This document shows positions 18,896 to 45,731 of a DNA stretch of 64,000 nt, in pieces (the stretch's first letter is position 1; each line of letters begins with the position of its first letter). The translations under genes were made by a program, and so were the position numbers. The DNA is from Bacteroidota bacterium (GTDB lineage: Bacteria > Bacteroidota > Bacteroidia > Palsa-965): assembly GCA_006218065.1 (NCBI GenBank), contig VBWE01000014.1:1618-65617 (forward strand). The letters run 5' to 3'. The notes beneath the pieces are model-generated. The model was given only the letters and a program-made list of their open reading frames with translations. It searched no databases and was not told the origin of the DNA.

Positions 18896-18898
18896 GGT

Positions 18899-31700: not shown

Positions 31701-32813
31701 AAACGTAAGCGTTCCCTGGAAATCGCCGGTGACCAGTACTTTGTTGTTTACGTCGCAGGTAATGGAATTGGCGATATTCACCGCGCCGCCGCCGATGCGC
31801 CGGAACCATTGTTCCACGCCGTTCGGATCGTACTTCACCACGAAAACGGCATTCACCATATTATTCAGGTGCACCTGGTCGAAGGTGATCGTATCGCTGA
31901 ACTGGCCGGTGATAAAAACGTTGCCGGTGGCGTCGCAGCTTACGTCGAGCCCGCGGTCGGTCATGTGCGCCGATCCTTTTTCCGCCCAGAGCACGTTCCC
32001 GGAAGCATCGTACTTCACGGTAAATACGTCAGTCGTTCCGTTCATGCTCGTAAGCACCTGCGAACCGAAACTGGCCGTGCCTGCAAACTCGCCGGTGATG
32101 ATCACGTTTCCGCTGTTATCCACGGTAATGCCGTTCCCGATATCCGCGCCGGTCCCGCCTCCCGACCGCAGCCAGAGCAGGGTTCCGCTGGGATCGTATT
32201 TCGCCACGAAGACATCCTGCTGCCCGGCGGAAATAACATTCTGTGAAGAAAAAGTCGCTGTATTGTAAAAGAAGCCGGTGATGTAACTGTTCCCGGCAGC
32301 GTCCGCTTTCACGCTCAGCCCGCGGTCCGAGCCTGTACCGCCGCCGCTCACGGCCCACTGGTAAACGCCCGCTGCATTGGTTTTACTCAGGAATACGTCC
32401 GTAATCCCCGCCGCATTCACGTTGAATGTCCCGAAACTGGCGGTAGTACTGTAATAGCCGGTATAATAAAGATTTCCTGCAGCGTCCGAACTCACGTCGG
32501 CAGCCTCGTCGTTGGCCAGCCCGCCCCCGCGCTGCACCCAGTAACTTTGCGCAAAGCTGTTGCCCGAAACGAGCAGTAACAGGAATAAAAAGGCAAAAGG
32601 CAAAAAGCAAACAGCAATACTATGTTTGCCTTTTGCTATTTGCCCTTTGCTATTTGCCCTTTGTTTTTTGCTTTTTTTAAGAAAATAAAAACGTCCTCCC
32701 TGTGAAGCAGGAAAATGCAAAACACAGGTACCTTGGGGGTGTGTCATGTGAGTTTTGTACTTAATGAAGGTATGCTTGCCAAACCAAATATAGGGCAAAG
32801 AGACCGACGGCAC
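28773..32813 (-). CDS. Giant (about 1340 aa) surface adhesin with N-terminal SBBP repeats, multiple Ig-like/PKD-like domains and a T9SS type B (gliding-motility-associated, CHU_C/SprB-like) C-terminal domain. The start is uncertain (32813 or 32750).
   Basis: DAAGNLYYTGYY, DAAGNSYITGFF and DNSGNVIITGEF are SBBP repeats. The C-terminal ...IPNVFTPNGDGNNDNW…RIYNRWGQLIYEF…GWDG… is a type B T9SS domain. The signal peptide h-region is encoded by tandem 14 bp repeats. Confidence 0.8.
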   Translation of the reverse strand: MPSVSLPYIWFGKHTFIKYKTHMTHPQGTCVLHFPASQGGRFYFLKKSKKQRANSKGQIAKGKHSIAVCFLPFAFLFLLLLVSGNSFAQSYWVQRGGGLANDEAADVSSDAAGNLYYTGYYSTTASFGTFNVNAAGITDVFLSKTNAAGVYQWAVSGGGTGSDRGLSVKADAAGNSYITGFFYNTATFSSQNVISAGQQDVFVAKYDPSGTLLWLRSGGGTGADIGNGITVDNSGNVIITGEFAGTASFGSQVLTSMNGTTDVFTVKYDASGNVLWAEKGSAHMTDRGLDVSCDATGNVFITGQFSDTITFDQVHLNNMVNAVFVVKYDPNGVEQWFRRIGGGAVNIANSITCDVNNKVLVTGDFQGTLTFFGTTNSTLSGLYSDCIFLARYDNAGNLDWSTSAASTSQVTSVSVTTDASANTYITGLFKCRFTEYSDQYGTSTFNSVGFWDIFVAQYNSTGAWQWSRQLGGKKDESMGGIALTTNNDVVLAGAFGQELFVPYVSVSFLGYNVTPTPGVITPPVFCGDNWYNDFAKLPTSGATDAFMGRAIDLSREPYDFYYHQGSGCNRDSNDVCIISTTLDYGCFGDTISVCEPPPNITLHGATQTSQFSPSSSNGPDFTYLWSTGSTQPSIFVNAPGMYAVTITSADGCITQQDTIILVFNPDPPLPTISDDELINVNDTITTPIILCADSVVLTGGNLSNTYSWVGPNGGDTSAVIIADTSGYYTIMTTNQFGCSSQTTVLVTLADPFDTLSPQMLLLEDTDGNDSISICDDDIFTMFIYDSITNPNALTNLCIEYLDEIQWTVTPAGGINYTSVTNCVTFTMNNMNPDSTGTYTITGMIIRASACDTDTFIVSHTYYIEVLPVPQGGQIPITITGNTQLCPGDTTLLVASGAPGYNWSTGSTNDSIYVSQPGTYTVSYLDTVTNSFGCDAVIFGNASIFVTVKQPPTITMNPGDGVICPNDSVLLVCTGVGTFIWQGPNGPIGGNVSSIYVTSPGFYYCVLMDNDSCQLVSNTLNIVQYNTPYLQAIPSPILCNSGDTVAISVISNSASLVQWQAPLSGSALTQYVTQPGTYTCLITSCGIVTPATITVNATQVAAQASILGPYPICEGDSTMLIANTGQTTYSWNPGNFTGDSVWVSLPGTYTLVATDQYGCSAQDTVSMFPQPNNLVPPIGTDTTVCIGQLAELHATGQNTIEWYTQFNGGSLLTTGNTYLAGPLLGDTTFYLVTHTGLCRSASSVINVDVVECPITIPNVFTPNGDGNNDNWTLYIPYGENVRVRIYNRWGQLIYEFSDLYIGWDGTVMQTGKPASDGVYYYIAEAEVPSMGITQHTGFLHLIRAGGK

Positions 32814-33143
32814 AAGGAATTGCGCGGTCTTTTTAAAATGCAGTCATCCCCGGGTTTGATGAAGCAAAAAAGGAAGGGGAAAGCAGGCCGGGGAAATCGT
32901 CCCGTTACGGCCTTTTTGCCCTTTGCAAATCTTAATATTTATTGTAGGTTTGCCATGAATGCATTACAGCTAAAGGCATGTGTTGCTGCTGCTGATCGAG
33001 GTGAACAACAATATTGAGAATACAAGTTGAGGAGGCGTTTTTTCGGCGCCTCTTTTTTGACGAGTCAACCCTGTATTTTTTCACCCCGGTCGGTGCGGAC
33101 ATCATGCCCGGCGCAAGTACAAACAACACACAATACAACCGTT

Positions 33144-33719
33144 ATGGCTATTAACCTGCAAAAAGGACAGAAGATCGACATTGCGCTGTCCAACATGAGT
33201 GTAGGCCTTGGCTGGAATCCCAATGAAGGCACCGGCCAGGCTTTCGATCTTGACGCTTCGGCGTTCATGCTCAACGAAGGAAGACTGATTCCCACCGAAG
33301 GGCATTTTATTTTCTATGGCAATACCGATTCGCCCGACGGCGGTTTGCATCATACGGGCGATGATCCTACCGGCGGCAACAGCGCTGACGGTGATGATGA
33401 AACCATCATGGTGAACCTGGCCAAAGTAAGTGCGGACATCCAGGAAATTCTTTTCGTGGTTACCATCCATGAAGCCGGCTCGCGCAGGCAGAATTTCGGG
33501 CAGGTGCGCAACTCTTATATCCGTATCGTGGATAACGGGAACGGGACGGAAATCGCGAAATATGAACTCGGCGAAGATTTCTCGGTTGAAACAGCCGTCG
33601 AATTCGGGCGTCTTTATAAGCGTGACGGAAAATGGAAATTCGAAGCTTCCGGCATCGGTTATAAAGAAGAACTCGCTTACTTCGTAGAGAAGTACTATAA
33701 AGGACAAGTCATTAAATAA
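33144..33719 (+). CDS. TerD-family stress protein (TerD paralog 1).
   Basis: MAINLQKGQKIDI…VGLGWNPN…FDLDASAFML…GDDPTGG..ADGDDE.I.V.L is the canonical TerD fold signature including Ca-binding Asp pairs. The ATG lies inside a longer ORF frame that starts at 33027. Confidence 0.9.
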   Translation: MAINLQKGQKIDIALSNMSVGLGWNPNEGTGQAFDLDASAFMLNEGRLIPTEGHFIFYGNTDSPDGGLHHTGDDPTGGNSADGDDETIMVNLAKVSADIQEILFVVTIHEAGSRRQNFGQVRNSYIRIVDNGNGTEIAKYELGEDFSVETAVEFGRLYKRDGKWKFEASGIGYKEELAYFVEKYYKGQVIK

Positions 33720-33752
33720 GTAAGTAGTTACACCAAATAACAAACGTAGATT

Positions 33753-34427
33753 ATGGCAATTAACCTGCAAAAGGGTCAAACCATTGACCTTCGCAAAAAC
33801 GATCAAGGTGAAAGTTTCGATCTTTCCCAGGTGACCATCGGCCTCGGATGGGACATGCGTAAAAAAGAAGGCGGCGGTTTTCTCGGAAAACTTTTCGGCG
33901 GAAAAGAAGAGGATTATGACCTCGATGCGGTTGCATTCCTGATGGATGCGAGCGACAAAGTGGCCAACCTGGGCCGCACCGTGCAGCATCCGAACGGCAT
34001 GAAAGTGCCGCTGTTCGAAAGCGACGTCATTTACTTCAACTCGCAGCGCCACCCTTCGGGGCATATCTGGCTTACCGGCGATAACCGCACGGGAGCAGGT
34101 GACGGCGACGACGAACAGATCATCGTGAAACTTGACGCGCTCGAGCAGCGTTTCCAGAAAGTGATGTTCCTGGTTACCATTTACCAGGGCAAACAAAAAG
34201 GCCAGCATTTCGGTATGGTTGCCAATGCGTATATCCGTGCGGTAGATGCCCGCGGAAAAGAAATTGCGCGTTACAACCTGTCGGGCGACGCCAGCATGAA
34301 CGGCATGGCCGGTATGGTTTTCGCCGAAGTGTACCGTAAGGACGGCACCTGGAAATTCCGCGCGCTCGGCAACCCGCAGAACACCGATAACTTTATCGAA
34401 GTACTTCGCCAGCACGTATATCAATGA
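33753..34427 (+). CDS. TerD-family protein (paralog 2, with inserts).
   Basis: MAINLQKGQTIDL…IGLGWD…YDLDAVAFLM…LTGDNRTGAGDGDDEQIIVKLD is a TerD signature. Confidence 0.9.
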   Translation: MAINLQKGQTIDLRKNDQGESFDLSQVTIGLGWDMRKKEGGGFLGKLFGGKEEDYDLDAVAFLMDASDKVANLGRTVQHPNGMKVPLFESDVIYFNSQRHPSGHIWLTGDNRTGAGDGDDEQIIVKLDALEQRFQKVMFLVTIYQGKQKGQHFGMVANAYIRAVDARGKEIARYNLSGDASMNGMAGMVFAEVYRKDGTWKFRALGNPQNTDNFIEVLRQHVYQ

Positions 34428-35119
34428 GCATACTGACCGGCGTCAGCCATATATCGTTCGATCTGTGGCTGACGCTGATCCGGTCAGCGCCCGGTTTTAA
34501 ACCGGAACGCGACCGTTTGCTCGCCGGTCATTTCGGCATTCAGCGTTCGCCGGAAAAAATTTCGGAAACGGTCAGGCATTTCGACCGGCTTTTCGACCGG
34601 GTGAGTATGATTACCGGGAAAAGTATCGATGCGGATGAAATCGTCCTGGTGATACTGGACGCGCTCGGGGCGGATATTTCAGCCGTGAGCCGCGAACAAT
34701 TGCAGCGTTTTTATGTTGATATGGAAGACTTGTTTTTTTCAAGCCCCCCTGTTCTCATCGATCCGCAAATGCCGCATCACCTGGAAAAGCTCCGGGAAAA
34801 GGGATTTACGCTGAGCCTGTTGAGCAACACGGCGTTTATCAGGGGTAAAACATTAAGAAAAATACTGGCGCATTATGAAATGGATATACATTTTGATTTC
34901 CAGCTTTATTCGGATGAGATCGGTTACGCCAAACCTGCGCCCGGCGCTTTTGCCTGTTTATGGCAGGAAGCAAAAAAACGCCGCAGCCTGGAAAAGGAAA
35001 TGATCCTGCATATCGGCGATAATCCCGACGCCGATGTAAAAGGCGCTTCGGATTTCGGCATGCGGGCGGCTTTGTTCAACCGGCAGGAAACCGCGCTGGC
35101 CGATATGCTGGAATGCTGA
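34424..35119 (+). CDS. HAD-superfamily hydrolase (phosphatase-like) with a non-canonical motif I.
   Basis: Motif I is ISFDLWLTL, motif II LSLLSNT, the motif III Lys is in YAKP, and motif IV is GDNPDAD. The ATGA overlap with the upstream TerD gene indicates translational coupling. Confidence 0.7.
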   Translation: MSILTGVSHISFDLWLTLIRSAPGFKPERDRLLAGHFGIQRSPEKISETVRHFDRLFDRVSMITGKSIDADEIVLVILDALGADISAVSREQLQRFYVDMEDLFFSSPPVLIDPQMPHHLEKLREKGFTLSLLSNTAFIRGKTLRKILAHYEMDIHFDFQLYSDEIGYAKPAPGAFACLWQEAKKRRSLEKEMILHIGDNPDADVKGASDFGMRAALFNRQETALADMLEC

Positions 35120-35155
35120 TGAACGGGATTTTCCCGTGTAAACAACAGGAATGAG

Positions 35156-35998
35156 ATGATTGTAAAACAGGCTTTAAAATTCGAAACGTTTTCCCTGCAT
35201 AAAATTCATGCGGCAGATACGCTCGCGTTCAGCGCGGAAGCTTACAGCCGGTTTAAATTCGGTCATGGCGGGTACGCGGAACAGTTCGGCCGCGAACTGG
35301 CGCTGAAATTTATCCGCGCGCACAGTGAACTGCTTTTATCCGAAGAAAAGATCGTCCTGCTGCCGAGTCCTTACGATTCCATTCCCACCGCTTCCAATGC
35401 CATGGCGCGTTCGTTCCGCACGGTACTGAATGCGTTCCTGGCCCGCCACGAAAAAAAATCGCTGCTCGAATCCAAAATACACCGCTACAAAACGTACAGC
35501 GTGGATTACGGCAACCTGGATTTTGAAGAAAGACTGCGGCTGATCTCGGCCGATACATATCATATCGACCGCGATTTCCTGAAAGAAGGACTCGTGCTGC
35601 TTATCGACGATGTGCGCATTACCGGGAGCCACGAACTGATGATCCGCAACCTGATCCGGAAAAATGAAGTCCCCGGCCATTTCGTATTCCTGTATTACGC
35701 CGAACTGGCCGACAAATCCGTCGCTCCCGATTTTGAGAATTACCTGAACTACTTTTTTGTGAAGGATATCCGGGGCATTCTCGAGATGATTCATGCGGAT
35801 TTCTTTATTTTTAACACAAGGGTGATCAAGTACATCCTGGGCTGCGATCAAAAACAGTTCGGGCTGGTGCTGGAAACCGTTCAAAAGGATAAACTGGTGC
35901 AATTGTGCGATCATGCGTTCGGCAACAATTACCACCTGATGACCGAATACAAAGAAAACCTCGAACGCATTCAACAACACATCCACTATGGCCATTAA
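35156..35998 (+). CDS. Phosphoribosyltransferase (PRTase)-fold protein of the ter-associated type.
   Basis: LVLLIDDVRITGSHEL is a PRPP-binding loop. The ORF overlaps the next TerD start by 11 bp. Confidence 0.7.
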   Translation: MIVKQALKFETFSLHKIHAADTLAFSAEAYSRFKFGHGGYAEQFGRELALKFIRAHSELLLSEEKIVLLPSPYDSIPTASNAMARSFRTVLNAFLARHEKKSLLESKIHRYKTYSVDYGNLDFEERLRLISADTYHIDRDFLKEGLVLLIDDVRITGSHELMIRNLIRKNEVPGHFVFLYYAELADKSVAPDFENYLNYFFVKDIRGILEMIHADFFIFNTRVIKYILGCDQKQFGLVLETVQKDKLVQLCDHAFGNNYHLMTEYKENLERIQQHIHYGH

Positions 35999-36539
35999 TC
36001 TTCAGAAAGGACAGCGCGAAAATATCAACGTGCCCAAATTCACCGTCGGTCTCGGCTGGGACGCCAACAGCAGCGCTACGGGAGGCGAGTTCGATCTCGA
36101 CGCTTCGGTATTCCTGCTCACCGAAAATCACAAAATTCCCGGCGACGATTATTTTGTTTTTTACAACAACAAAGTTTCCGGCGACGGATCGGTGACGCAT
36201 TCCGGCGACAACCGCACGGGCGCCGGCGACGGTGACGACGAGCAGGTGGTAGTCGACCTCTCGAAAGTAAATCCGCAGGTTACGCAGATCTGTATCGTGG
36301 TAACCATTCACGAAGCCGAAGCACGCCGCCAGAATTTCGGACAGGTGCGCAATGCCTTTATCCGCATCATCGACGCGAGCGGAGCGGAACTGGTGAAATA
36401 CGATCTCGACGAAGATTTCTCGATCGAAACGGCCGTGGAATTCGGACGCATTTACAACCGCAGCGGCCAGTGGAAATTCGAAGCCGTGGGCGTAGGCATG
36501 CAGGGCGGATTAGGTGATTATCTTACAAAGTATACGTAA
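35988..36539 (+). CDS. TerD-family protein (paralog 3).
   Basis: MAINLQKGQRENI…VGLGWDAN…FDLDASVFLL…GDNRTGAGDGDDEQVVVDL is a TerD signature. Confidence 0.9.
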   Translation: MAINLQKGQRENINVPKFTVGLGWDANSSATGGEFDLDASVFLLTENHKIPGDDYFVFYNNKVSGDGSVTHSGDNRTGAGDGDDEQVVVDLSKVNPQVTQICIVVTIHEAEARRQNFGQVRNAFIRIIDASGAELVKYDLDEDFSIETAVEFGRIYNRSGQWKFEAVGVGMQGGLGDYLTKYT

Positions 36540-36540
36540 T

Positions 36541-36720
36541 GTTCACGTCTCGTCTATCGCTCGACGTGACAAGCCGGCGTTTCAAGTCTAAAGTTTCAAG
36601 TTTAATGTTTCAGGTTTTGTAACGCATCAGATCAAAAGACAAAACGTTGAACATTAAACTTTAAACCTGAAACTTTAGACTTGAAACATTGAACAGTAAG
36701 CAGAACTCTCCGAAGGAATA
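36541..36720. repeat. Post-stop conserved hairpin (CACGTC-N13-GACGTG) followed by a roughly 110 bp complex palindrome (TTTCAAGTCTAAAGTTTCAAG…CTTGAAACTTTAGACTTGAAA).
   Basis: The inverted repeats are directly visible in the sequence. Confidence 0.7.
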
Positions 36721-36742
36721 ACCAATACTATATAAAACCAAA

Positions 36743-37381
36743 ATGAGAAGACTACCCGTTTACCTCCTGCTCGACACGTCGGGCTCAATGACAGGAGAAC
36801 CGATTGAAGCAGTGAAGAACGGCGTACAGGTGCTTATTTCCACCCTTCGCCAGGATCCGTATGCGCTCGAAACCGCTTACATCAGCGTAGTGACGTTCAA
36901 TACGACCGCTTCGCAGCTGATTCCGCTCACCGATCTTTCTTCGTTCCAGATGCAGGACATCAAAGCCGGCGGATCAACGGCACTTGGCGATGGTCTGAAA
37001 GTACTGGCCGAATGTATCGACCGCGAAGTGGCGAAAAGCACAGCCGAAACCAAAGGCGACTGGAAACCGCTTGTCTTTATAATGACGGACGGTGGTCCCA
37101 CCGACCAGTGGCAGGCAGGCCTCGCCGAATTCCAGAGAAGGAAAGTCGGTGTGATCGTAGCCTGTGCGGCCGGCAGTGGCGCGGATACCAACGTACTCAA
37201 GCAGGTTACCGACGTGGTGGTTTCGCTCGACACGGCTGATTCGGCCACGATCAAAGCCTTTTTCAAATGGGTTTCCGCGTCGATCAGCACCGGCAGCCAG
37301 AAAGTGGAAAGCGGCGAGAAGGAAGTGGGCGGCCTCAGCGAATTACCGCCGCCGCCGCCGGAAGTGAATATAGTGGTGTAA
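36743..37381 (+). CDS. TerY-type von Willebrand factor A domain protein.
   Basis: MRRLPVYLLLDTSGSM is a MIDAS DxSxS motif. The 212 aa product has a C-terminal PPPPPE tail. Confidence 0.85.
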   Translation: MRRLPVYLLLDTSGSMTGEPIEAVKNGVQVLISTLRQDPYALETAYISVVTFNTTASQLIPLTDLSSFQMQDIKAGGSTALGDGLKVLAECIDREVAKSTAETKGDWKPLVFIMTDGGPTDQWQAGLAEFQRRKVGVIVACAAGSGADTNVLKQVTDVVVSLDTADSATIKAFFKWVSASISTGSQKVESGEKEVGGLSELPPPPPEVNIVV

Positions 37382-37587
37382 TGCACATGTCTCGACTGCC
37401 GCTCGACATGACGTGTGTTATACACAGAAGTAAAGAGATCGGCTACCGCTCGACATGACGTGTATGTAATACGCGTAAAAGGAACATCGCCGCCACTCGA
37501 TGTGACGAATACTGTAAGGGCGATGCATTGCATCGCCCCAATGTAATACGGTGATGCATTGCATCGCCCGACTGTAATACAAAACTC
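37382..37587. repeat. Cluster of direct and inverted repeats: a post-stop hairpin CATGTC-N13-GACATG, CCGCTCGACATGACGTGT in 2.5 copies, and a tandem pair of GGGCGATGCATTGCATCGCCC palindromes.
   Basis: The repeats are directly visible in the sequence. Confidence 0.7.
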
Positions 37588-38223
37588 ATGAGACGCCTAC
37601 CTGTATATCTTTTACTGGACACTTCGGGTTCTATGCGCGGGGAACGGATCGAGGCGGTGAAAAACGGCCTGCAGGTACTCCTGTCGAAACTTCGCCAGGA
37701 CCCGCATGCGCTGGAAACGGTCTGGATGAGCATCATCACCTTCGACCGCGAAGTGCACCAGGTACTTCCGCTCACCGATCTCGAATCGCTGCAGATGCCC
37801 GAAATCCTCACGCCCGAGTCGGGTCCGACGAACATGGGCGCTGCGCTGGAAATGCTGCTGCAGAAATCCGACGCGGAAGTGATCCGCAGCACCGACGATC
37901 AGAAAGGCGACTGGCGCCCGCTGCTGTTCCTGATGACCGACGGAAAACCTTCGGACCTCGCCGCTTTCCGCGAAGTCGTCCCGAAAGTGAAAAAGAAAAA
38001 TTTCGCCGCCATCATCGCCTGCGCCGCCGGAGCAGAAGCGCAGGACAGTTTCCTGAAAGAACTGACGGATATCGTCGTTCACCTGGACACGGCCGACAGC
38101 AATACGCTGGTTTCTTTCTTCAAATGGGTATCCGCTTCCATCGGTACGGGAAATATGAGCGTCAGTTCTACCGATCAGCTCATCCTTCCGCCGCCGCCGG
38201 ATGAAGTGCACATGATTATTTAA
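37588..38223 (+). CDS. TerY-type vWA domain protein (second paralog).
   Basis: MRRLPVYLLLDTSGSMRGERIEAVKNG is a MIDAS motif. The protein is about 50 % identical to the upstream vWA. Confidence 0.85.
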   Translation: MRRLPVYLLLDTSGSMRGERIEAVKNGLQVLLSKLRQDPHALETVWMSIITFDREVHQVLPLTDLESLQMPEILTPESGPTNMGAALEMLLQKSDAEVIRSTDDQKGDWRPLLFLMTDGKPSDLAAFREVVPKVKKKNFAAIIACAAGAEAQDSFLKELTDIVVHLDTADSNTLVSFFKWVSASIGTGNMSVSSTDQLILPPPPDEVHMII

Positions 38224-38225
38224 TG

Positions 38226-38458
38226 ATTGTTTAAAACTCCTCCGGAGGATATATTACAAAATAAAGAAAATGAAAGTCGGAGTAGTTTCTTTTTCCAGTT
38301 TACAGTTGACAGTTTGCAGTTGGCAGTTTTTGTTTTACAGGGATGTCGTCAAAACTTCCGCGTTAACGCGTTCAAAACTGCCAACTGCAAACTGGAGTAA
38401 GGACATACGATTACAAAATACTCCCGTTTAAAGGAGCTTCGTTTTATACAGTCTGATC
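38226..38458. mobile_element. MITE-like, non-coding element of about 230 bp with imperfect 13 bp terminal inverted repeats (GATTGTTTAAAAC / GTATAAAACAGTC-type) and a perfect internal 22 bp inverted repeat. This is copy A.
   Basis: It is homologous (about 80 %) to the reverse complement of 48311-48540. It has no ORF. Confidence 0.6.
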
Positions 38459-38469
38459 GAATCCGTTCT

Positions 38470-38727
38470 ATGAAAACATTTTTTTTCCTGTTCCTGAATG
38501 TTTTGATCATTGGCTTGTTCCTGTTTTCAAAATTATTGCCTTACAAGGACAAGCTCGGTAAACAGTACGCAGGAATATTCCGGTTCTTCCAGGCCATTTT
38601 CGACCCGGTGCTCAACTTCATGCGGAAGTTGTTCAAACCGGCGCAGGTAGGGCAGGGACTGGCGGTGGATATGGCGCAGATCATTTTACTGGTGCTGCTT
38701 TTAATCCTGCTGAATTTTTGCAGATGA
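38470..38727 (+). CDS. Small two-TM membrane protein (85 aa), possibly YggT-like.
   Basis: The ORF has two hydrophobic helices. Confidence 0.4.
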   Translation: MKTFFFLFLNVLIIGLFLFSKLLPYKDKLGKQYAGIFRFFQAIFDPVLNFMRKLFKPAQVGQGLAVDMAQIILLVLLLILLNFCR

Positions 38728-38734
38728 AAAAAAA

Positions 38735-38815
38735 TCCGAATGGCGAATGCCGAACTCCGAATGTTGAATTGCGAATTTTGCATTCGGCATTCGACATTCG
38801 GAGTTCGAAATTCAA
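38735..38815. repeat. Nested palindrome and hairpin (CGAACTCCGAATG…CATTCGGAGTTCG, with GAATGCCGA…TCGGCATTC inside).
   Basis: It is visible in the sequence. It is related to the GAATGCCGA repeats at 165-215. Confidence 0.6.
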
Positions 38816-38850
38816 AAAACGTTCTTCTGTTTAACAAGACATAAAAACCC

Positions 38851-39903
38851 ATGAGAAGACTACCCATTTATTTCCTGATCGACATCTCCGAATCGATGGT
38901 GGGCGAACCCATCCAGATGGTGGAAGAAGGTCTTGCCACGATCATCAAGGCGCTGAAAGAAGATCCCTATGCACTCGAAACGGTGCATGTATCCATCATC
39001 GTTTTTGCCGGCCAGCCGAAAACGCTGGTTCCGCTGCAGGAGATCATCAACTTCTACCCGCCGCGTTTCCCCATCGGCGGCGGTACTTCGCTGGGCAACG
39101 GGCTCGGGCACCTTATGTACGAACTGCGGAAAAATACGATCATGACCACGCTCGAACAAAAAGGCGACTGGAAACCGATCGTATTCCTGTTTACCGACGG
39201 CGTTCCGACGGATGATTCGTCGACCGCGATCGCGGAATGGAAAAAGAATTGGGCCAGCAAAGCCAGCATGGTTGCCGTTTCTTTCGGAAGTGAAACCGAC
39301 CTGGCCCTGCTCAAGGAACTTACCGATACCACGTTCATGTTCAAGAATACGAACGTGAACCAGTACAAGGAATTTTTCAAATGGGTTACCGCTTCCATCC
39401 GCACCAGCAGTCTGAGCGTGGAAAACAACGGTTCCGGTTTCGAACTGGCCAAGCCCGACGACGCTGTGATCGCGAAAGTGGACCATGTGGAGAACCATAA
39501 GCCCAAACAGTTTGTTGATACCAACTACGCGGTCTTCGTGGCCAAATGCCAGAACACGAAAAAACCGTACCTGATGAAATACAAACGTATGGTTCGTCCC
39601 ACGACGGTCGGCGGAATGGAGATGAACAGCCTGGTGTACCGCCTCAACGGCGCGTTCATCATCGACGATCTGTATTTCGAATTGTCGGACAACAACGCAG
39701 TGAACAATAAAATCAGCACCGACGAGATGGAAGGATTTCCGACCTGCCCTTCGTGCGGAAACCAGTACGGTTTCAGCGTGTGCAGCTGCGGCAAAATGCA
39801 CTGCGTGGGCAATGAAGAAACAAGCACCTGCCCGTGGTGCGGAAACCAGGGCAAATACGGATTCGGCGAAGGCCGCATGGACATTAATACCACGCAGGGT
39901 TAA
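38851..39903 (+). CDS. TerY-type vWA domain protein with a C-terminal Cys-rich zinc-ribbon module.
   Basis: MRRLPIYFLIDISESM is a MIDAS motif. The C-terminal CPSCGNQYGFSVCSCGKMHCVGNEETSTCPWCGN is a zinc ribbon. The TAATG overlap couples it to the downstream phosphatase gene. Confidence 0.85.
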   Translation: MRRLPIYFLIDISESMVGEPIQMVEEGLATIIKALKEDPYALETVHVSIIVFAGQPKTLVPLQEIINFYPPRFPIGGGTSLGNGLGHLMYELRKNTIMTTLEQKGDWKPIVFLFTDGVPTDDSSTAIAEWKKNWASKASMVAVSFGSETDLALLKELTDTTFMFKNTNVNQYKEFFKWVTASIRTSSLSVENNGSGFELAKPDDAVIAKVDHVENHKPKQFVDTNYAVFVAKCQNTKKPYLMKYKRMVRPTTVGGMEMNSLVYRLNGAFIIDDLYFELSDNNAVNNKISTDEMEGFPTCPSCGNQYGFSVCSCGKMHCVGNEETSTCPWCGNQGKYGFGEGRMDINTTQG

Positions 39904-41318
39904 TGGAACGCGACCTCCGGAAAGATTATATCAAGAGATTACTGGCTTCGAAGCGGATGGAAATTCCGCAGAAGCAGGCGGATTTTTTCGACCGTTTTGT
40001 CGATGATGCCGAAATACTGAACCATTATCAAAGCATAAATAACGCTGCACGAAATATCATGGACACCTGGAAAGAACGCTCGGTCATCGAAGATATCCGT
40101 ACCAAGCATATTCAACTGCCGAATGCGACCGTAGGCAAACCCTACAGTTTCGAATTTTCCCTGGCGAAAATGGGACTGCAGCACATAGAAGAATTCGAGA
40201 TCGACGGTTTTTCGGAACTCGGCCTGAACTTCGATAAAGCCACCGGCATCTTATCCGGCGCGCCCGGGATGAAAGGCGAACATAAAATCAAGTTCCGTTA
40301 TAAACTCGACTTCGGCGCAGAGGAGAGGTCTTTCCATGAAAAGGAACTGACCTTCGTAGTGAATCCCGATCCGAAATCGCTCTGGCAGAATTTACCTTCG
40401 GACAAAGAAGACAAATTCTGGAAAGAAGACAATACTTCGGCGAAGTATGAAATCGCCGGCCGTCATCTCGTGGTGGGTTCCAAGCGGGGCCGCAGCCATG
40501 CGCACGAAGGAAAATTCCGCGACGACGAATATGATTTCTTTTTTGACGAATCGACCGGTTTCGGCGTGATCGTGGTTTCCGACGGGGCCGGCAGTGCGAA
40601 ATATTCGCGGAAAGGTTCGCTGATCGCCTGCGAAAGTGTGGTCGAATATTTTTCGAAAGAAATTCCAGCCGAAGAATACGCCGCGCTCGATGCGACGATT
40701 ATTTCGCATCACCAGGCCAAAACAGACGAAAGTTCGAAAACGCTGCGCGAGTTCCTGGTCAGCCGTCTCGCGAAAGCGGCTTTTTACGCTCACCAGAAAA
40801 TCAAAACCTGTGCGGACGAAAACGAATCCGCCCTGCGGGATTTTTCCGCCACCTTACTGTATTCATTGGTCCGGAAATATGATTTCGGTTATTGCATCAT
40901 GTCTTTCGGCATCGGCGACGGCGGCATCGGTATTTACGACAAGGAGAAAGGCGAATCGCACCTGCTCACCACGCCCGACGGCGGCGAGTTTGCGGGGCAG
41001 ACGCGTTTCGTGACGATGCCCGACATTTTTACGAGCGAAGGATTCTACAACCGGGTTTCGTTTAAGATCGTGGACAATTTCACGGCGCTCGTGCTGATGT
41101 CCGACGGCATTACCGATCCGAAATTCCAGACCGACGCCAACCTCGGCCGCGTGGAAAAATGGGCGGAACTCTGGGAAGATCTCGGCGGAAAAAATGCGGA
41201 CAACGCAACAGTCAAATTCGATCCTGCCAATGAAAATATCGAAGCGGAACTGCTGGACTGGATGGATTTCTGGTCACCCGGGAACCACGACGACAGGACG
41301 ATCGCCATACTGTATTGA
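39903..41318 (+). CDS. PP2C-family Ser/Thr phosphatase with an N-terminal extension domain.
   Basis: GVIVVSDGAGSA is PP2C motif 1/2 and LVLMSDGITD is the C-terminal metal-binding motif. Confidence 0.75.
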   Translation: MERDLRKDYIKRLLASKRMEIPQKQADFFDRFVDDAEILNHYQSINNAARNIMDTWKERSVIEDIRTKHIQLPNATVGKPYSFEFSLAKMGLQHIEEFEIDGFSELGLNFDKATGILSGAPGMKGEHKIKFRYKLDFGAEERSFHEKELTFVVNPDPKSLWQNLPSDKEDKFWKEDNTSAKYEIAGRHLVVGSKRGRSHAHEGKFRDDEYDFFFDESTGFGVIVVSDGAGSAKYSRKGSLIACESVVEYFSKEIPAEEYAALDATIISHHQAKTDESSKTLREFLVSRLAKAAFYAHQKIKTCADENESALRDFSATLLYSLVRKYDFGYCIMSFGIGDGGIGIYDKEKGESHLLTTPDGGEFAGQTRFVTMPDIFTSEGFYNRVSFKIVDNFTALVLMSDGITDPKFQTDANLGRVEKWAELWEDLGGKNADNATVKFDPANENIEAELLDWMDFWSPGNHDDRTIAILY

Positions 41319-41382
41319 TTAAATTCCGAATTCGTACATTCGTAAGGATTTGTAATTCGCAGCCCCGAAGGAAAACAATCTT

Positions 41383-42912
41383 ATGTCAAACACGATCACC
41401 ATCAAAGCGCTCGACGGAAGCACCGTTCAGTATGTCGACAACGGCTCGCCGATGCAGGGCGGGCTGAAGGATGTGTATTTCAGTCCCGATAAAAGTTACG
41501 TGGTCGCTTTTTTCCGCGACAAGCTCAAGCCGGTGGAATATACGCAGACCAAAGAGCGCCTGATCATGATCGCCAACACGTTCCGGGAACGGATTTTCAA
41601 CCAGGCAGGCGGCGAGTACTGGAAAGACCTGTACTGCTGGCCGACCAAAGTGGTTGAATATAACGGCAGGCTCGGTGTGGTTGCGCCGGTTTACCAGAAG
41701 CATTTCTTTTTCGCCACCGGGTATAACCAGAACGCTGCGCAGATCGCGAGTATCAGGGGAAAAGAAAAAGAAGGCAAGTGGTTCGCCGCGCCGCAGTTCC
41801 GCAACGCGAATTTCAAACTGCATCTCGATAAAAAAGAACTCGGCGACTGGTTTAAATATTTCCTGGTCTGCATTCGTATCAGCCGCGCGGTGCGCCGTAT
41901 GCATGCCGCCGGTCTCGCGCATTCCGACCTCTCGTATAAAAACGTACTCATCGATCCCACCACCGGCAACGCGGCCATCATCGATATCGACGGGCTCGTG
42001 GTCCCGGGCAAGTTTCCGCCCGACGTGATCGGTACGCCCGATTTTATCGCGCCCGAAGTCATGGCTACGAAAAGCCTCGGGAAAACCGATCCGAACCGGA
42101 AACTGCCGAGTATCCAGACCGACCGGCACGCGCTGGCCGTGATGATCTATATGTACCTGCTTTATCGTCACCCGCTGCGTGGCGGCAAAGTGCACGATCT
42201 CGATCCGCAGAAAGATGAAGAACTGTCCATGGGCTCGAAAGCCCTGTTCGTGGAGCATCCGACCGACGCCGCGAACCGGCCGAAACTGAAACACGTCAAA
42301 GCGACGCACCTGCCCTGGGCCGACGTAACGAAATTGCCATACACCATCACCGGGCCGTACCTGAAACAACTTTTCGACAAAGCGTTTATCGACGGATTGC
42401 AGCACCCGATGCAGCGGCCGACAGCCGACGAGTGGGAGCAGGCGCTGATCAAAACGGTGGACCTGATGCAGCCCTGCCAGAACCCGCGCTGCGACCAGAA
42501 ATGGTTCGTGTTCGACAATTCCACCACGCCTATCTGCCCGTTCTGCAACACACCTTATAAAGGCCAGCTGCCGATCCTCAACCTCTACTGGCAGCGTTCC
42601 CCGGGAAAATGGGTGGAAGAAAAACACCGCCTGATGGTTTATAATAACCAGTACATTTACCAGTGGCACATCAACCGGACGATTTCGCCGAACGAACGAC
42701 TTTCGGCCGAACAGAAAAAACCGGTCGGTTATTTCGTGATGCACGGCGGAAAATGGATGCTCGTGAATCAAACCATGAACAGCCTGAAAGACGTAACGGA
42801 GAATAAAGAAATTCCCATCGGCCAGATGATCGAACTTACCGACGGTAAACAGATTCTTTTATCGAATGCCGATGGCGGAAGACTCGTCATCGTTCAACTT
42901 GTAAACAACTAA
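41383..42912 (+). CDS. Eukaryotic-like Ser/Thr protein kinase with a C-terminal Cys-rich region.
   Basis: HSDLSYKNVLID is the catalytic loop HxDxxxxN, IDIDGL the DFG equivalent and GTPDFIAPE the APE motif. The C-terminal CQNPRCDQ…CPFCN is Cys-rich. Confidence 0.8.
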   Translation: MSNTITIKALDGSTVQYVDNGSPMQGGLKDVYFSPDKSYVVAFFRDKLKPVEYTQTKERLIMIANTFRERIFNQAGGEYWKDLYCWPTKVVEYNGRLGVVAPVYQKHFFFATGYNQNAAQIASIRGKEKEGKWFAAPQFRNANFKLHLDKKELGDWFKYFLVCIRISRAVRRMHAAGLAHSDLSYKNVLIDPTTGNAAIIDIDGLVVPGKFPPDVIGTPDFIAPEVMATKSLGKTDPNRKLPSIQTDRHALAVMIYMYLLYRHPLRGGKVHDLDPQKDEELSMGSKALFVEHPTDAANRPKLKHVKATHLPWADVTKLPYTITGPYLKQLFDKAFIDGLQHPMQRPTADEWEQALIKTVDLMQPCQNPRCDQKWFVFDNSTTPICPFCNTPYKGQLPILNLYWQRSPGKWVEEKHRLMVYNNQYIYQWHINRTISPNERLSAEQKKPVGYFVMHGGKWMLVNQTMNSLKDVTENKEIPIGQMIELTDGKQILLSNADGGRLVIVQLVNN

Positions 42913-42933
42913 AACAAAATACAGGTATCCCTT

Positions 42934-43746
42934 ATGGATCAACTGCAAATTTACATCGACCAGATTATTCAAAACCCGCTTGCAGCGCTGGCTGTGATCG
43001 GTAACCTGATTGTTATCGAGAGCCTGCTTTCCGTGGACAACGCGGCCGTACTGGCCACGATGGTTATGGATTTACCCAAAGAGCAACGTGCCAAGGCCCT
43101 TCGTTACGGGATTATCGGCGCTTACGTTTTCCGCGGACTCTGTCTTTTGTTTGCCGCTTACCTGATCACGATCTGGTGGCTGAAGCCGCTCGGCGGATTA
43201 TACCTGCTGTATCTCGTTTTCGATTATTTCAAGGGTAAAATGACGCCGGATAAAGAAGAAGACGTGCTCGAAAAACAATCGCACTGGATGTACCGCGCCA
43301 CGATCGGCTGGATGGGCCAGTTCTGGGCTACGGTAGCGCTCGTGGAAATTATGGACCTGGCGTTTTCCATCGACAACGTATTCGCCGCGGTGGCTTTCAG
43401 TGAAAACCTGGTCCTGATCTGGGTCGGCGTGTTCATCGGTATTCTCGCGATGCGTTTCGTTGCGCAGGGATTCGTAAAATTGATGGAACGTTACAAGTTC
43501 CTGGAAACGGCAGCGTTCGTGGTTATCGCCGTGCTGGGCATCAAGCTCATGCTCTCGCTGCTTGAACATTTTTACCCGGATCACGCGTTCAGCAAATTTC
43601 TCGGAAGTCACGCCGCCGACTGGGGTGTGTCGATCATTACTGTTTCCATCTTCTTCATTCCGATCATCACCAGCACCTTGTTCAATTTCCCGAAACGCGG
43701 CGTGCCGGGAGAGAGCGAGGAAAGTAAAGAGGAAGAGAGTAAGTAG
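42934..43746 (+). CDS. TerC-family integral membrane protein.
   Basis: The 270 aa product has about 7 TM helices and the typical TerC pattern (…SVDNAAVLATMV… / …SIDNVFAAVAF…). Confidence 0.85.
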   Translation: MDQLQIYIDQIIQNPLAALAVIGNLIVIESLLSVDNAAVLATMVMDLPKEQRAKALRYGIIGAYVFRGLCLLFAAYLITIWWLKPLGGLYLLYLVFDYFKGKMTPDKEEDVLEKQSHWMYRATIGWMGQFWATVALVEIMDLAFSIDNVFAAVAFSENLVLIWVGVFIGILAMRFVAQGFVKLMERYKFLETAAFVVIAVLGIKLMLSLLEHFYPDHAFSKFLGSHAADWGVSIITVSIFFIPIITSTLFNFPKRGVPGESEESKEEESK

Positions 43747-43840
43747 TCATGCCTCGACTACCGCCCGGCATGACAAGTGTGTTGAATATAGTTGTACCGC
43801 CTGTCGCTCGAACGGACAAGTCTGTTGAAAATAGTTGTAC

Positions 43841-43885
43841 CGCCTGCCAGCCTCCTCCGCCTCAGGCGGAGGAGGCTGGCAGGCG
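43841..43885 (+). terminator. Perfect 21 bp-stem palindrome downstream of the TerC gene.
   Basis: CGCCTGCCAGCCTCCTCCGCC-TCA-GGCGGAGGAGGCTGGCAGGCG. Confidence 0.6.
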
Positions 43886-43950
43886 CTCGTAAAAGTTGCC
43901 GAAAAAATCCCCGCAGAAAAAACGGCAAAAGAAAACACCAATTTCCTATG

Positions 43951-43993
43951 CCGAACCAATTCCCCTCTCTGCCGGAGAGGGGTTGGGGTGAGG
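43951..43993. terminator. 43 bp element containing the hairpin CCCCTCTC-TGCCG-GAGAGGGG. It is identical to 2327-2369, and both copies lie immediately 3' of minus-strand genes.
   Basis: The two copies are exact duplicates in the sequence. Confidence 0.6.
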
Positions 43994-44015
43994 TCTGGAA
44001 AACAGACCGGATAAC

Positions 44016-45731
44016 TTACAAAGGTTTGATATCCTTTATACTCAACTGCACGCTGACGTTTCCGTTGAAGTCGTTTTCTTCGATGGCGTAGCACATGTCG
44101 AAGGGTTTTTGCTGGGAAAGCGCGAGGTAATGGTCGCCGAGACCGAAACCGATGGCGGGGAAAATGCGCGTGGGTTGCGCGGGATCGACGATATCCATTT
44201 TCAGGTGATTGACGCCTACGATGCGCAGCCAGCCGCGGTCGCGGACATCGCTGGCGAGGAAAACGGGATTCATATTCCCCGGTCCGAAGGGCGCGAACTG
44301 TTTCAGTATCCGCAGGAGTTTTCCGTCGATATCGTTCAGGCTGAGCGTTGCGTCTATTTCCACTTCGGGCGTGAGCATGTCGGGCGTGATGCGGCGGCTG
44401 ACTTCTTCTTCGAAACGTTCGCGGAATTTTTCCACGTTTTCTTTTTTCAGCGTGAGTCCTGCCGCATATTTATGCCCGCCGAACTGCTCGAGCAAACCGT
44501 TGCAGGCTTCGATGGCTTCGTACACGTCGAAATCTTTTACTGAGCGCGCCGAGCCGGTTACCATGCCGTTTGCTTCGGCGAGTACGATGGTGGGCCGGTA
44601 GTACTTCTCGATCAGCCGCGAAGCCACGATACCGACTACGCCTTTATGCCACTGCGGCTGGAAGAGTACGGTGCTTTTCCGTTGTGCCGCCAGCGGATCG
44701 GCCGCCATCATGTCGAGGGCCTGTTGCGTAATCAGCATGTCGAGGTCTTTGCGGTCGGCGTTGTTTTTGTTCAGTTTTTCAGCGCAGGCTTCGGCTGTTT
44801 TTTCGTCCGGCGCGGTGAGCAGTTCCACCGCCAGCTTGCCGTGTTCGATCCGCCCGGCAGCATTGATCCGCGGGGCGATCGTAAATACCAGGTCGCTCAC
44901 GGTAAATTCGCGTTTCAACGCAGCCATGCGGACCAGGGTTTTTAATCCTTCGCGCGGAGAAGTGTTGATCTCTTTCAGCCCGGCATACATCAGCGCGCGG
45001 TTCTCGCCCGTTACCGGTACAATATCGGCGGCAATACTCACGGCTACGAGATCGAGCAGCGGAAGCAGTTTTTCAAAATCGATTTTCCTTTTCTGCGCAT
45101 AAGCCTGCACCAGTTTGAAACCGATGCCGCAACCCGTAAGTTCATCGTAAGGATAAGTACAATCGTCGCGTTTCGGATCGAGCACGGCCAGTGCGGGCGG
45201 CAGTTCCGGTCCCGGGCGATGGTGGTCGCAGATGATAAAATCAATTCCTTTTTCCCCGGCGTAACGTACTTTTTCCACCGCCTTGATGCCGCAGTCGAGC
45301 GCGATGATGAGTCCGAATTTATTTTCCGCCGCAAAATCGATCCCGGCGTACGAAATGCCGTAGCCTTCTTTATAACGGTCGGGAATATAAAAACCGCATT
45401 CCGCGCCCAGCGCTTTTATAAAGGAGTAGACGAGCGCCACGGCAGTTGTACCGTCCACATCGTAATCGCCGTAAACCAGGATTTTTTCTTCGTTTTCGAT
45501 GGCGTGTTCAATGCGGTCGACCGCTTTGTCCATATCGCGCATCAGGTAGGGATCGTGCAGCTGGTCGAGCGAAGGGCGGAAAAAAATCCGCGCTTCTTCA
45601 AATGTTTTTACTCCCCGCAGCACCAGCAGGCGCGCGAGCAGCAGATGAATTCCCAACTCACTTGCGAGCTTTCGGACCAGTTCTTCGTCCGCACCCGTTT
45701 TTTGCTTCCAGCGCTTGATCATCATGAGCAA
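44016..45731 (-). CDS. recJ: Single-stranded-DNA-specific exonuclease RecJ.
   Basis: ILVYGDYDVDGTTAVALVY is DHH motif I, CDHH is the DHH motif, and there is a DHHA1 region. Confidence 0.9.
   Translation of the reverse strand: MLMMIKRWKQKTGADEELVRKLASELGIHLLLARLLVLRGVKTFEEARIFFRPSLDQLHDPYLMRDMDKAVDRIEHAIENEEKILVYGDYDVDGTTAVALVYSFIKALGAECGFYIPDRYKEGYGISYAGIDFAAENKFGLIIALDCGIKAVEKVRYAGEKGIDFIICDHHRPGPELPPALAVLDPKRDDCTYPYDELTGCGIGFKLVQAYAQKRKIDFEKLLPLLDLVAVSIAADIVPVTGENRALMYAGLKEINTSPREGLKTLVRMAALKREFTVSDLVFTIAPRINAAGRIEHGKLAVELLTAPDEKTAEACAEKLNKNNADRKDLDMLITQQALDMMAADPLAAQRKSTVLFQPQWHKGVVGIVASRLIEKYYRPTIVLAEANGMVTGSARSVKDFDVYEAIEACNGLLEQFGGHKYAAGLTLKKENVEKFRERFEEEVSRRITPDMLTPEVEIDATLSLNDIDGKLLRILKQFAPFGPGNMNPVFLASDVRDRGWLRIVGVNHLKMDIVDPAQPTRIFPAIGFGLGDHYLALSQQKPFDMCYAIEENDFNGNVSVQLSIKDIKPL

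Follow-up and report, generated by a model that had tools for sequence, protein, structure and literature searches.

A compact chromosomal Ter/TerY-P locus in Bacteroidota related to the ter locus of enterobacterial plasmids

The Ter system of Anantharaman, Iyer and Aravind (2012), as summarised in later papers (PMC7824862, PMC8115787), is modelled as a set of phosphoribosyltransferase (PRTase) and HAD enzymes for signal synthesis, TerD and TerB proteins for ligand binding, TerC at the membrane, and a sub-membrane layer of vWA and TelA proteins (PMC7824862). The product of the PRTase/HAD enzymes in this model is a nucleoside or nucleotide signal (Iyer et al., PMC7824862), and Aravind and colleagues see Ter as an anti-invader system (PMC7824862). 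For the TerY-P triad, a role as a phospho-switch that senses metal has been described (PMC11090510), and TerY-P-like triads were reported to give protection from T7-like phages (Gao 2020, summarised in PMC7699616 and PMC11090510). Among the single components, TerD binds Ca2+ (Pan 2011, cited in PMC5395568), and MeeF/MeeY-type TerC proteins transport Mn that serves metalation, with Bacillus subtilis MeeY, a member of the YkoY group, metalating Mn-dependent membrane and extracellular enzymes (PMC12096827). In Klebsiella pneumoniae, terC affects resistance to Te, Zn, Mn and phage, with phage resistance lowered by its deletion; Zn and Mn act as inducers of the ter operon, the core function of which the authors still term unclear (PMC12054061). 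Here we analysed a 64,000-nucleotide stretch of contig VBWE01000014.1 from a Bacteroidota metagenome-assembled genome (MAG), hereafter the window, in which a block of genes at positions 33144–43746 is almost certainly a chromosomal Ter/TerY-P locus. Compared with the ter locus of enterobacterial plasmids, to which it is related, the locus is compact. Since the same cluster occurs in hundreds of Bacteroidota genomes and is related to the plasmid locus, it represents a known, widespread and already annotated kind of locus and not a new system.

The block consists of an unbroken run of co-directional open reading frames on the forward strand, comprising 12 genes in 10.6 kb, of which 11 are Ter genes and one encodes a small YGGT-family protein (Table 1). 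The original prediction, made from the sequence alone, had counted 13 genes; the number 12 agrees with the deposited locus tags (FD123_2060 is the PRTase and FD123_2067 the kinase), in an annotation where all products of the cluster are listed as "hypothetical protein". Pfam and NCBIfam profiles assigned every gene of the cluster, and Pfam confirmed each family named in that prediction (TerD, HAD, PRTase, vWA, PP2C, kinase and TerC), as well as the position of the HAD and PRTase genes between TerD copies and of the PP2C, kinase and TerC genes downstream of the vWA genes. With TerD and TerC, a PRTase and HAD pair, and a TerY-P triad, the block has the organisation credited to Anantharaman, Iyer and Aravind in the later summarising papers. 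The accompanying statement that the output of such a locus is not known to have been demonstrated also stands, with papers from 2021–2025 still calling the function unclear and the metabolite only predicted. Two other descriptions had to be corrected. The cluster had been called complete, but no Pfam match to TerB or TelA was obtained among the 12 cluster proteins and 12 flanking proteins scanned, and no TerA/TerZ-type, TerW or ATP-grasp protein was found in the same set. Many of the genes had been called translationally coupled, which was overstated: three of the 11 junctions overlap (TerD2/HAD by 4 nt, PRTase/TerD3 by 11 nt, and vWA3/PP2C by 1 nt), while four are gaps of 203 nt (TerD3-vWA1), 206 nt (vWA1-vWA2), 246 nt (vWA2-YGGT) and 123 nt (YGGT-vWA3). 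The GC content of the block (0.49–0.53) is like that of the rest of the window, so the block does not look like a recent island.

To compare the locus with the enterobacterial one by BLASTP, we used the Escherichia coli IncHI plasmid pECO-109b (NZ_CP026208.1) as the reference. One strand of this plasmid region carries terZ, terA, terB, terC and terD, and the other carries genes for an ATP-grasp protein, a PRTase, a hypothetical protein, StiP, an HpcH aldolase, a DUF4236 protein, TerW, a VWA protein, a TerD-family protein, a second VWA protein, a VWA-TerY_C protein, a PP2C phosphatase and a kinase. The alignments are full or near-full length for vWA1, vWA2, vWA3 and the kinase, and the identities, ranging from 33% to 69% for the TerY-P half, indicate that this half is orthologous to the enterobacterial plasmid ter block. 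For the HAD and PRTase_3 proteins, no BLASTP match to the HAD and PRTase proteins of pECO-109b was obtained, and the "biosynthetic" half is a smaller and different enzyme set than the enterobacterial one. The block vWA-TerD(TerX)-vWA-vWA_TerY_C-PP2C-kinase is common to the window locus and to the enterobacterial ter loci (terZABCDEF plus terW-terY-terX, known from IncHI plasmids, O157 and the Klebsiella virulence plasmid). In contrast to the enterobacterial plasmid locus, the window locus is chromosomal and not carried on a conjugative plasmid, lies on one strand within 10.6 kb, and is without TerB, TerA, TerZ, TerW, ATP-grasp, StiP protease, HpcH aldolase and DUF4236. It also differs in having a YGGT gene inserted before the vWA_TerY_C gene, in having its TerX-like TerD2 at the front instead of between the vWA genes, and in its YkoY-type TerC, which follows the kinase. 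Overall, the Bacteroidota form has 12 genes on a single strand, whereas the enterobacterial plasmids have about 20. Relatives of the vWA-TerY_C protein were found on 2,292 plasmids (2,241 at a coverage of at least 80%), mostly conjugative ones from Klebsiella, Escherichia, Enterobacter and Salmonella; phage-borne copies were limited to two weak partial matches.

The window locus also has the same parts as the TerY-P triad reported as anti-phage (Gao 2020) and as an add-on of CoCoNuT restriction systems of types II and III-A, namely a TerY-type vWA protein, a PP2C phosphatase and a Ser/Thr kinase, and the kinase of the CoCoNuT-associated triad has a C-terminal zinc ribbon, as does the window kinase (PMC11090510). 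Unlike the stand-alone triad, that of the window lies within a TerD/TerC locus and comprises three vWA paralogs. The validated stand-alone triads are described with a kinase-OB fusion (PMC11090510); the window kinase has the zinc ribbon plus a beta domain of unmatched fold. Searches of PADLOC-DB 2.0, a library that may not contain TerY-P models, at E<=1e-3 and E<=10 returned no match for the vWA, PP2C, TerD and TerC proteins and only generic kinase models (PD-T4-6, mad6 and MkoA) for the kinase.

Upon scanning one genome per GTDB species, at least 600 stretches were obtained, of which at least 564 were confirmed, and 80 loci from different assemblies were kept. These belong to Flavobacterium, Chitinophaga, Taibaiella, Pedobacter, Algoriphagus, Ferruginibacter, Crocinitomicaceae and many MAGs, with Chitinophaga costaii, C. 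pinensis, C. filiformis, Flavobacterium johnsoniae, F. fluviale, Taibaiella and Pedobacter steynii among the named carriers. The presence of the locus in a Bacteroidota chromosome, which the original prediction had singled out, is therefore not unusual, given at least 564 confirmed stretches in species-representative genomes. When homologs were counted as clusters at 90% identity, with the vWA-TerY_C search run at E<=1e-10, there were 3,529 clusters for vWA-TerY_C, 4,053 for the kinase and 653 for PRTase_3. A tblastn census of the 12 window proteins against 83 loci, 55 of them "long" (at least 20 kb), revealed that vWA2, vWA-TerY_C, PP2C and the kinase are present in all 55 long loci and TerD1 in 54 of them. 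The identities across the censused loci are 56–86% for the kinase, 64–77% for vWA_TerY_C and 67–83% for vWA1. Across orders of Bacteroidota the genes keep their order and strand, the outcome of the synteny comparison that had been proposed, and the 12-gene order is identical in six loci (L002, L004, L005, L006, L008 and L077, the last from Chitinophaga costaii). Some lineages differ from the window: the HAD-PRTase-TerD3 genes lie between vWA1 and vWA2 in Chitinophaga and Algoriphagus loci, the Flavobacterium loci add TelA, DUF8226 and extra TerD genes and have a TerC of the Alx type, and some relatives are without the HAD-PRTase-TerD3 cassette. Three contigs that contain this type of locus at 64–76% identity carry the labels of Synechococcus, Akkermansia and Bifidobacterium MAGs (L004, CALRTD020000039.1; L017, CAZQKN010000001.1; L075, CAZSUF010000087.1), and these labels probably reflect binning contamination or mislabelled bins.

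Table 1. Features of the Ter/TerY-P locus and its intergenic regions, with positions in the window and BLASTP comparison with plasmid pECO-109b
Feature	Position	Strand	Description	Family match	Plasmid counterpart, identity
Candidate Bacteroidota-type promoter	32922–32952	+	TTTG-N19-TAGGTTTG; ~190 nt upstream of TerD1; pattern match only		
TerD1	33144–33719	+	191 aa; TerD-domain protein, Ca2+-binding type	PF02342, 2.5e-66	TerD, 46%
TerD2	33753–34427	+	224 aa; TerX-like paralog with two insertions	PF02342, 7e-55	TerX-position TerD-family protein between vWA genes, 53%, full length
HAD-superfamily hydrolase	34424–35119	+	231 aa; subfamily IA-like	PF00702, 1.8e-10	
PRTase_3	35156–35998	+	280 aa; ComF-like type-I phosphoribosyltransferase	PF15610, 1e-73	
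TerD3	35988–36539	+	183 aa; paralog travelling with HAD-PRTase	PF02342, 1e-71	TerD, 52%
TerD3-vWA1 gap hairpin	36579–36690		7-nt units (GTTTCAA GTCTAAA ...); arms 38 nt, 89% complementary; -46.8 kcal/mol, z -9.5; no T-run after		
vWA1	36743–37381	+	212 aa; TerY-type vWA	PF00092, 5e-14	VWA_a (TerY), 69%
vWA1-vWA2 gap repeats	37386–37580		two copies of a 25-nt unit ending CGCTCGACATGACGTGT; two tandem 21-nt palindromes GGGCGATGCATTGCATCGCCC, -36.4 kcal/mol, z -7.3		
vWA2	37588–38223	+	211 aa; TerY-type vWA	PF00092, 1.3e-13	VWA_a, 55%; VWA_b, 54%
vWA2-YGGT gap hairpin	38310–38394		perfect 21-bp; 7-nt units (CAGTTTG CAGTTGG ...); -40.4 kcal/mol, z -5.4		
YGGT-family small membrane protein	38470–38727	+	85 aa; two hydrophobic helices	PF02325, 27.5 bits	
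YGGT-vWA3 gap hairpin	38732–38813		7-nt units (CCGAATG GCGAATG ...); -39.7 kcal/mol, z -6.8		
vWA3 with TerY_C domain	38851–39903	+	350 aa	PF15616, 1.5e-44, and PF00092	VWA-TerY_C, 40%, full length
PP2C-family (PP2C_2) Ser/Thr phosphatase	39903–41318	+	471 aa	PF13672, 1.3e-34, residues 195–428	PP2C, 33%, residues 67–471
Hanks-type Ser/Thr kinase	41383–42912	+	509 aa; zinc ribbon and C-terminal all-beta domain	Pkinase, 1e-9	kinase, 58%, full length including zinc ribbon and C-terminal domain
TerC-family membrane protein	42934–43746	+	270 aa; YkoY subfamily	PF03741, 6e-52	TerC, 23%
TerC-recJ hairpin	43841–43885		perfect 22-bp, G+C-rich; -50.9 kcal/mol, z -8.7		

Analysis of the three vWA proteins indicated that the metal ion-dependent adhesion site (MIDAS) motif, DxSxS...T...D, is intact in all of them and invariant across 70–84 orthologs, bearing out the MIDAS assignment made from the sequence alone; the zinc-domain fusion proposed for one of them corresponds to the TerY_C domain of vWA3, in which eight Cys and His residues are invariant (C299, C302, C311, C313, H317, C318, C327 and C330). 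A KWV(S/T)ASI motif after the vWA domain is common to all three proteins. The C-terminal tail of vWA1 (LPPPPPEVNIVV) is conserved, with both the MIDAS and the proline tail kept in 70 orthologs. The polyproline C-termini of vWA1 (ELPPPPPEVNIVV, 37340–37381) and vWA2 (LPPPPDEVHMII, 38190–38223) are both strongly conserved and share the consensus LPPPP(P/D)EV, which reads LPPPPDEV in vWA2; either tail may be a peptide that docks to a partner, the kinase's C-terminal beta domain being one candidate. The PP2C gene adjoins a vWA gene, its start overlapping the vWA3 stop, and the metal-binding Asp motifs of the phosphatase (RDD, DGAG, SDG and HDDRT, with D208, D227, D401 and D463/D464) are invariant. 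Its N-terminal region of about 190 aa gave only weak Ig-like matches (He_PIG, E 0.026; SraP, 1.7e-4), and an Ig-like (He_PIG) fold is possible for this region.

The kinase shows no variation among orthologs at D182 and N187 of its HSDLSYKN loop or in the DIDG and APE motifs. Downstream of the catalytic region, a four-Cys zinc ribbon (C365, C370, C385 and C388) is followed by an all-beta domain (residues 396–507) with no sequence match in Pfam or the PDB. The lysine of the beta3 VAIK motif is missing, the corresponding segment reading YVVAFFR with an invariant R45, while an invariant K29 occupies the third-glycine position of the glycine loop (GGLKDVY, in the region of residues 26–45). This combination resembles that of the WNK ("with-no-lysine") kinases, where the loop reads GSFKTVY, and K29 may serve in place of the beta3 lysine, as in WNK kinases. 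An hhalign comparison of the kinase profile with PKA and WNK1 covered the C-lobe only, with the N-lobe that contains K29 outside the alignment.

All three TerD proteins start with MAINLQKGQ, as the original prediction had pointed out, and all contain the FDLDA and GD(N/D)xTG...GDDE motifs of the Ca2+ site, which in TerD1 take the form GDD.TG...GDDE and FDLDAS. Among NCBIfam models, the HAD protein comes closest to those of REG-2-like proteins and pyrimidine nucleotidases, in each case with a score under the model's cutoff. The nucleophile D13, the SNT and KP motifs and the GDN..D motif are conserved, motifs II–IV are kept, and residue 15, the Asp+2 position of motif I (DLWLTL), is an invariant Trp in 56 orthologs; judged from these residues, the chemistry of the protein may differ from that of standard HAD phosphatases. 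PRTase_3 gave no match in a PDB sequence search, and its confident structure model matches ComF and type-I PRTases, with the PRT fold and the acidic PRPP (phosphoribosyl pyrophosphate) loop intact. The HAD-PRTase-TerD3 order is kept wherever the cassette occurs, even when it is placed between vWA1 and vWA2. The trio is found in 48 of the 55 long loci.

The YGGT protein, which the original prediction did not name, scores just above the PF02325 cutoff of 27 bits. The gene is called as such in relatives and lies directly before the vWA-TerY_C gene in 40 of the 55 long loci. Because 21 of 25 orthologs match PF02325 (best E value 1.2e-7), the protein is a genuine and conserved component of the locus. 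On TIGR03716 (YkoY) the window TerC reaches 251 bits, against a cutoff of 138.5, and on the Alx model 57 bits, placing it in the YkoY subfamily and not with the classical tellurite TerC. It is of the same TerC family as B. subtilis YkoY (MeeY) and YceF (MeeF) and E. coli Alx, a family linked to Mn2+ export and metalation. The genes of these proteins stand alone under riboswitch control, whereas the window TerC is the last cistron of a Ter/TerY-P cluster and has no riboswitch: an Rfam search at E<=1 found no riboswitch, whether yybP-ykoY (Mn2+) or other, across 32500–44200. In the loci examined, the TerC that follows the kinase is of two kinds, a short one of 266–277 aa (the window type) and a long one of 332–338 aa, the latter found in 48 loci and 35% identical to E. 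coli TerC; that of Flavobacterium falls into the Alx/TerC subfamily of NCBIfam. The two subfamilies, about 24% identical, share the slot after the kinase, as seen on comparing the window gene with L001, L003 and 46 other loci, and the swap between lineages looks like paralog displacement within a conserved operon.

Analysis of the regions around and between the genes suggested that the cluster is probably one operon driven from a promoter near 32922–32952. A single operon is favoured because one promoter-like box lies upstream and no -7 box (TAnnTTTG) is present on the forward strand within 33144–43746, gaps included. The promoter pattern has three matches in the window against 1.4 expected, and the one upstream of TerD1 is the sole full forward-strand match in or next to the cluster; its TTGTAGGTTTGCCAT box is conserved upstream of TerD1 in L002. 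A scan for sigma-70 promoters and intrinsic terminators, which is unsuited to Bacteroidota, gave no excess over shuffled sequences (11 promoters against 9.6 and 15 terminators against 16.8). The region between the candidate promoter and TerD1 (32955–33065) contains a 20-codon open reading frame (MNALQLKACVAAADRGEQQY) and, after it, a GC-rich hairpin with a T-run at 33027–33063 (GAGGAGGCG...CGCCTCTTTTTT, -16 kcal/mol, z -2.9). A role of this leader hairpin as an attenuator was set aside, as neither L002 nor other relatives conserve the leader and the z value is modest. Beyond TerC, the 43841–43885 hairpin is likely the transcript end for both TerC and the convergent recJ gene.

Hairpins built from heptamer units occupy three of the four wide internal gaps, and none of the internal-gap hairpins is followed by a T-run; their energies and z values were obtained by RNA folding, and an Rfam search at E<=1 returned only sub-threshold miRNA-precursor models for them, which marks them as generic hairpins. 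Heptamer hairpins were seen in the window at 5984–6121, 18818–18897, 36579–36690, 38290–38394, 38732–38813, 58586–58721 and 60713–60801, and in L002 at 5837–5900, 7982–8088, 8762–8877 and 11091–11164. Each has its own unit sequence, such as ATTTTCG ATTGCCG... or GATATGA GATGTGA..., and folds at -37 to -47 kcal/mol. In L002 they lie at the TerD2-HAD, TerD3-vWA1, vWA1-vWA2 and vWA3-PP2C junctions and are unrelated in sequence to those of the window; the TerD3-vWA1 and vWA1-vWA2 gaps bear hairpins or repeats in both. None was found in L004 or L008, and the same junctions in most relatives are only 2–100 nt long and hairpin-free; compared with other relatives, the window lineage and L002 have acquired these elements. 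We read the heptamer hairpins as a lineage repeat class that settled in permissive gaps and is not Ter-specific, which may affect mRNA stability or polarity. The 17-nt repeat CGCTCGACATGACGTGT of the vWA1-vWA2 gap was rejected as a genome-wide family, only two exact or near-exact copies being present in the window at that stringency. By eye, a "TCGACTACCGC...GCATGACAAGTGTGT" unit after TerC (43749–43830) is loosely similar to the repeats of this gap, and together they look like a second small repeat family.

The cluster is flanked upstream by a gene for a 1346-aa CHU_C protein of the type IX secretion system (T9SS) on the opposite strand and downstream by recJ (44016–45731, reverse strand). 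Farther out are genes for a hybrid sensor kinase, a T9SS cargo protein, an SDR protein, a MarR regulator, a GNAT protein, a BBE-type oxidase and two CotH-domain T9SS proteins. The last two are tandem paralogs of about 700 aa (50256–52343 and 52448–54553), each with a proprotein-convertase P-domain, a CotH kinase domain and a T9SS C-terminal sorting domain, and from this architecture their products would be secreted CotH-like kinases. No Pfam-recognisable defence protein was found among the 12 flanking proteins scanned, and no McrBC/CoCoNuT or other nuclease among the cluster and flanking proteins. The original prediction had attached significance to the T9SS neighbours. Only one of three relatives with called flanking genes (L002) has Por_Secre_tail neighbours, and a T9SS linkage of the locus was rejected on this ground.

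The interpretation starts from direct observations of domain families, of residues for catalysis and metal binding, of a gene order kept among relatives and of the TerY-P orthology. With moderate confidence, we favour the reading that the block is a Ter/TerY-P locus for metal-linked envelope stress, combining a phospho-switch with a small-nucleoside cassette. In the mechanism proposed, PRTase_3 would couple PRPP to a base, the HAD protein would remove the 5'-phosphate to yield a nucleoside-like small molecule, and the co-translated TerD3 would bind or respond to that molecule. The TerD proteins would bind Ca2+ and sit under the membrane with the YGGT protein and the YkoY-type TerC, whose family moves Mn2+ and other divalent metals. 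The three MIDAS-containing vWA proteins would serve as metal-dependent substrates or as the scaffold of the switch, with the kinase phosphorylating them and PP2C resetting them, which would change their assembly at the membrane and in turn alter TerC-linked metal flux or envelope properties. In sum, the cell would withstand oxidising xenobiotics and metal excess, and possibly the entry of phages or bacteriocins, effects that have been reported for ter loci of enterobacteria. This chain as a whole, built on the functions of the protein families, is tentative and open to doubt at several of its steps. Several points weigh against the favoured reading. The TerB, TelA and ATP-grasp proteins of the published model are missing here, and the HAD-PRTase-TerD3 cassette, being absent from seven of the 55 long loci, is not required for the core. 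The residues of the enzymes raise further doubts, as the Trp in place of the Asp+2 general acid means that phosphatase chemistry of the HAD protein is not assured, and the activity of the kinase, which has no beta3 lysine, is assumed from its C-lobe motifs. The four internal gap hairpins could split the cluster into separate transcripts. Finally, a literature search on the Bacteroidota locus type (TerD, tellurite or tellurium resistance and phage, in Bacteroidetes and Flavobacterium) found no study with a published phenotype.

The same parts could instead form a dedicated anti-phage defence, in which the triad senses infection, the PRTase/HAD pair makes or depletes a nucleotide-derived signal, and the membrane parts block entry or abort infection. 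TerY-P-like triads were reported to be protective against T7-like phages (Gao 2020, via PMC7699616 and PMC11090510), enterobacterial ter loci give phage resistance that terC deletion lowers in K. pneumoniae (PMC12054061), and Aravind and colleagues view Ter as directed against invaders (PMC7824862). However, with identities of 56–86% among the loci of Bacteroidota and of up to 69% with E. coli, conservation is far above that typical of fast-evolving defence genes, the flanks hold housekeeping or secreted-protein genes instead of defence genes, and phage-borne copies are almost nil. The vWA, PP2C, TerD and TerC proteins match no PADLOC model even at E<=10, with generic models only for the kinase, which has a zinc ribbon and an unmatched beta domain where validated triads are described with a kinase-OB fusion. 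Weakened by the high conservation, the housekeeping flanks, the near-absence from phages and the lack of PADLOC matches, a pure phage-defence role appears unlikely to us. A role mainly in metal homeostasis or metalation would have the YkoY-type TerC export Mn2+ (or Ca2+) to load secreted or envelope enzymes, with TerD and the vWA proteins buffering or sensing metal, the kinase and phosphatase tuning the process, and stress resistance arising as a by-product. The membership of TerC in the group of B. subtilis MeeY (PMC12096827), the induction of the ter operon by Zn and Mn and the Zn and Mn resistance given by terC (PMC12054061), the binding of Ca2+ by TerD (Pan 2011, cited in PMC5395568), the metal-binding MIDAS kept in all three vWA proteins and a genome rich in T9SS cargo are all consistent with such a role. 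It leaves the PRTase/HAD cassette and the need for three vWA paralogs unexplained, no yybP-ykoY Mn riboswitch precedes TerC (the gap after the kinase is 21 nt and Rfam returned nothing), relatives swap in an Alx/TerC-type protein so that a YkoY-specific role is not conserved, and T9SS genes flank the locus in only one of the three relatives with annotated neighbours. Because the cassette and the interchangeable TerC subfamilies are not accounted for, pure metalation is disfavoured, and we regard it as an unlikely explanation.

A further question is whether the genes are neighbours instead of one unit, with the gaps separating TerD/HAD/PRTase, the single vWA genes, YGGT and vWA3-PP2C-kinase-TerC. 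The four gaps of 123–246 nt with hairpins of -36 to -47 kcal/mol (z -5 to -9.5), the independent movement or loss of HAD-PRTase-TerD3, and the uninformative sigma-70-type scan would allow for this. Yet order and strand are conserved across Bacteroidota orders, the vWA-TerD-vWA-vWA_TerYC-PP2C-kinase block recurs in Enterobacteria, and most relatives have short, hairpin-free junctions at the same places. In addition, the hairpins have no T-runs, similar ones occur in other gaps of the window and at L002 junctions, and the gaps contain no forward-strand Bacteroidota -7 box. Separate units are thus very improbable in our view, and the reading of the block as a metal-linked envelope stress locus with a phospho-switch and a nucleoside cassette remains the favoured one. 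A more specific version of the idea, to which we give little credence, is that the compact Bacteroidota form may serve as a switch for metal export under control by phosphorylation, and not as a device against tellurite or phage. The kinase would use K29, its beta domain would dock on the vWA1 and vWA2 tails, the phosphorylated vWA assembly would gate TerC and the YGGT protein, and the HAD(Trp)-PRTase_3-TerD3 cassette would supply a nucleoside ligand. If this were true, the high conservation (vWA1 is 69% identical to its E. coli counterpart) would reflect a multiprotein machine of general importance.

The window adds no new component class to the Ter system, and this MAG copy is of no special value in itself. 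The Bacteroidota form of the locus represents a minimal version with an invariant core of vWA, vWA-TerY_C, PP2C, kinase and TerC, an optional three-gene HAD-PRTase-TerD cassette, and a YGGT membrane partner that was previously under-noticed. Cultured carriers of the Bacteroidota form, for instance Flavobacterium johnsoniae and Chitinophaga, may offer convenient hosts in which to test the predictions made in 2012.

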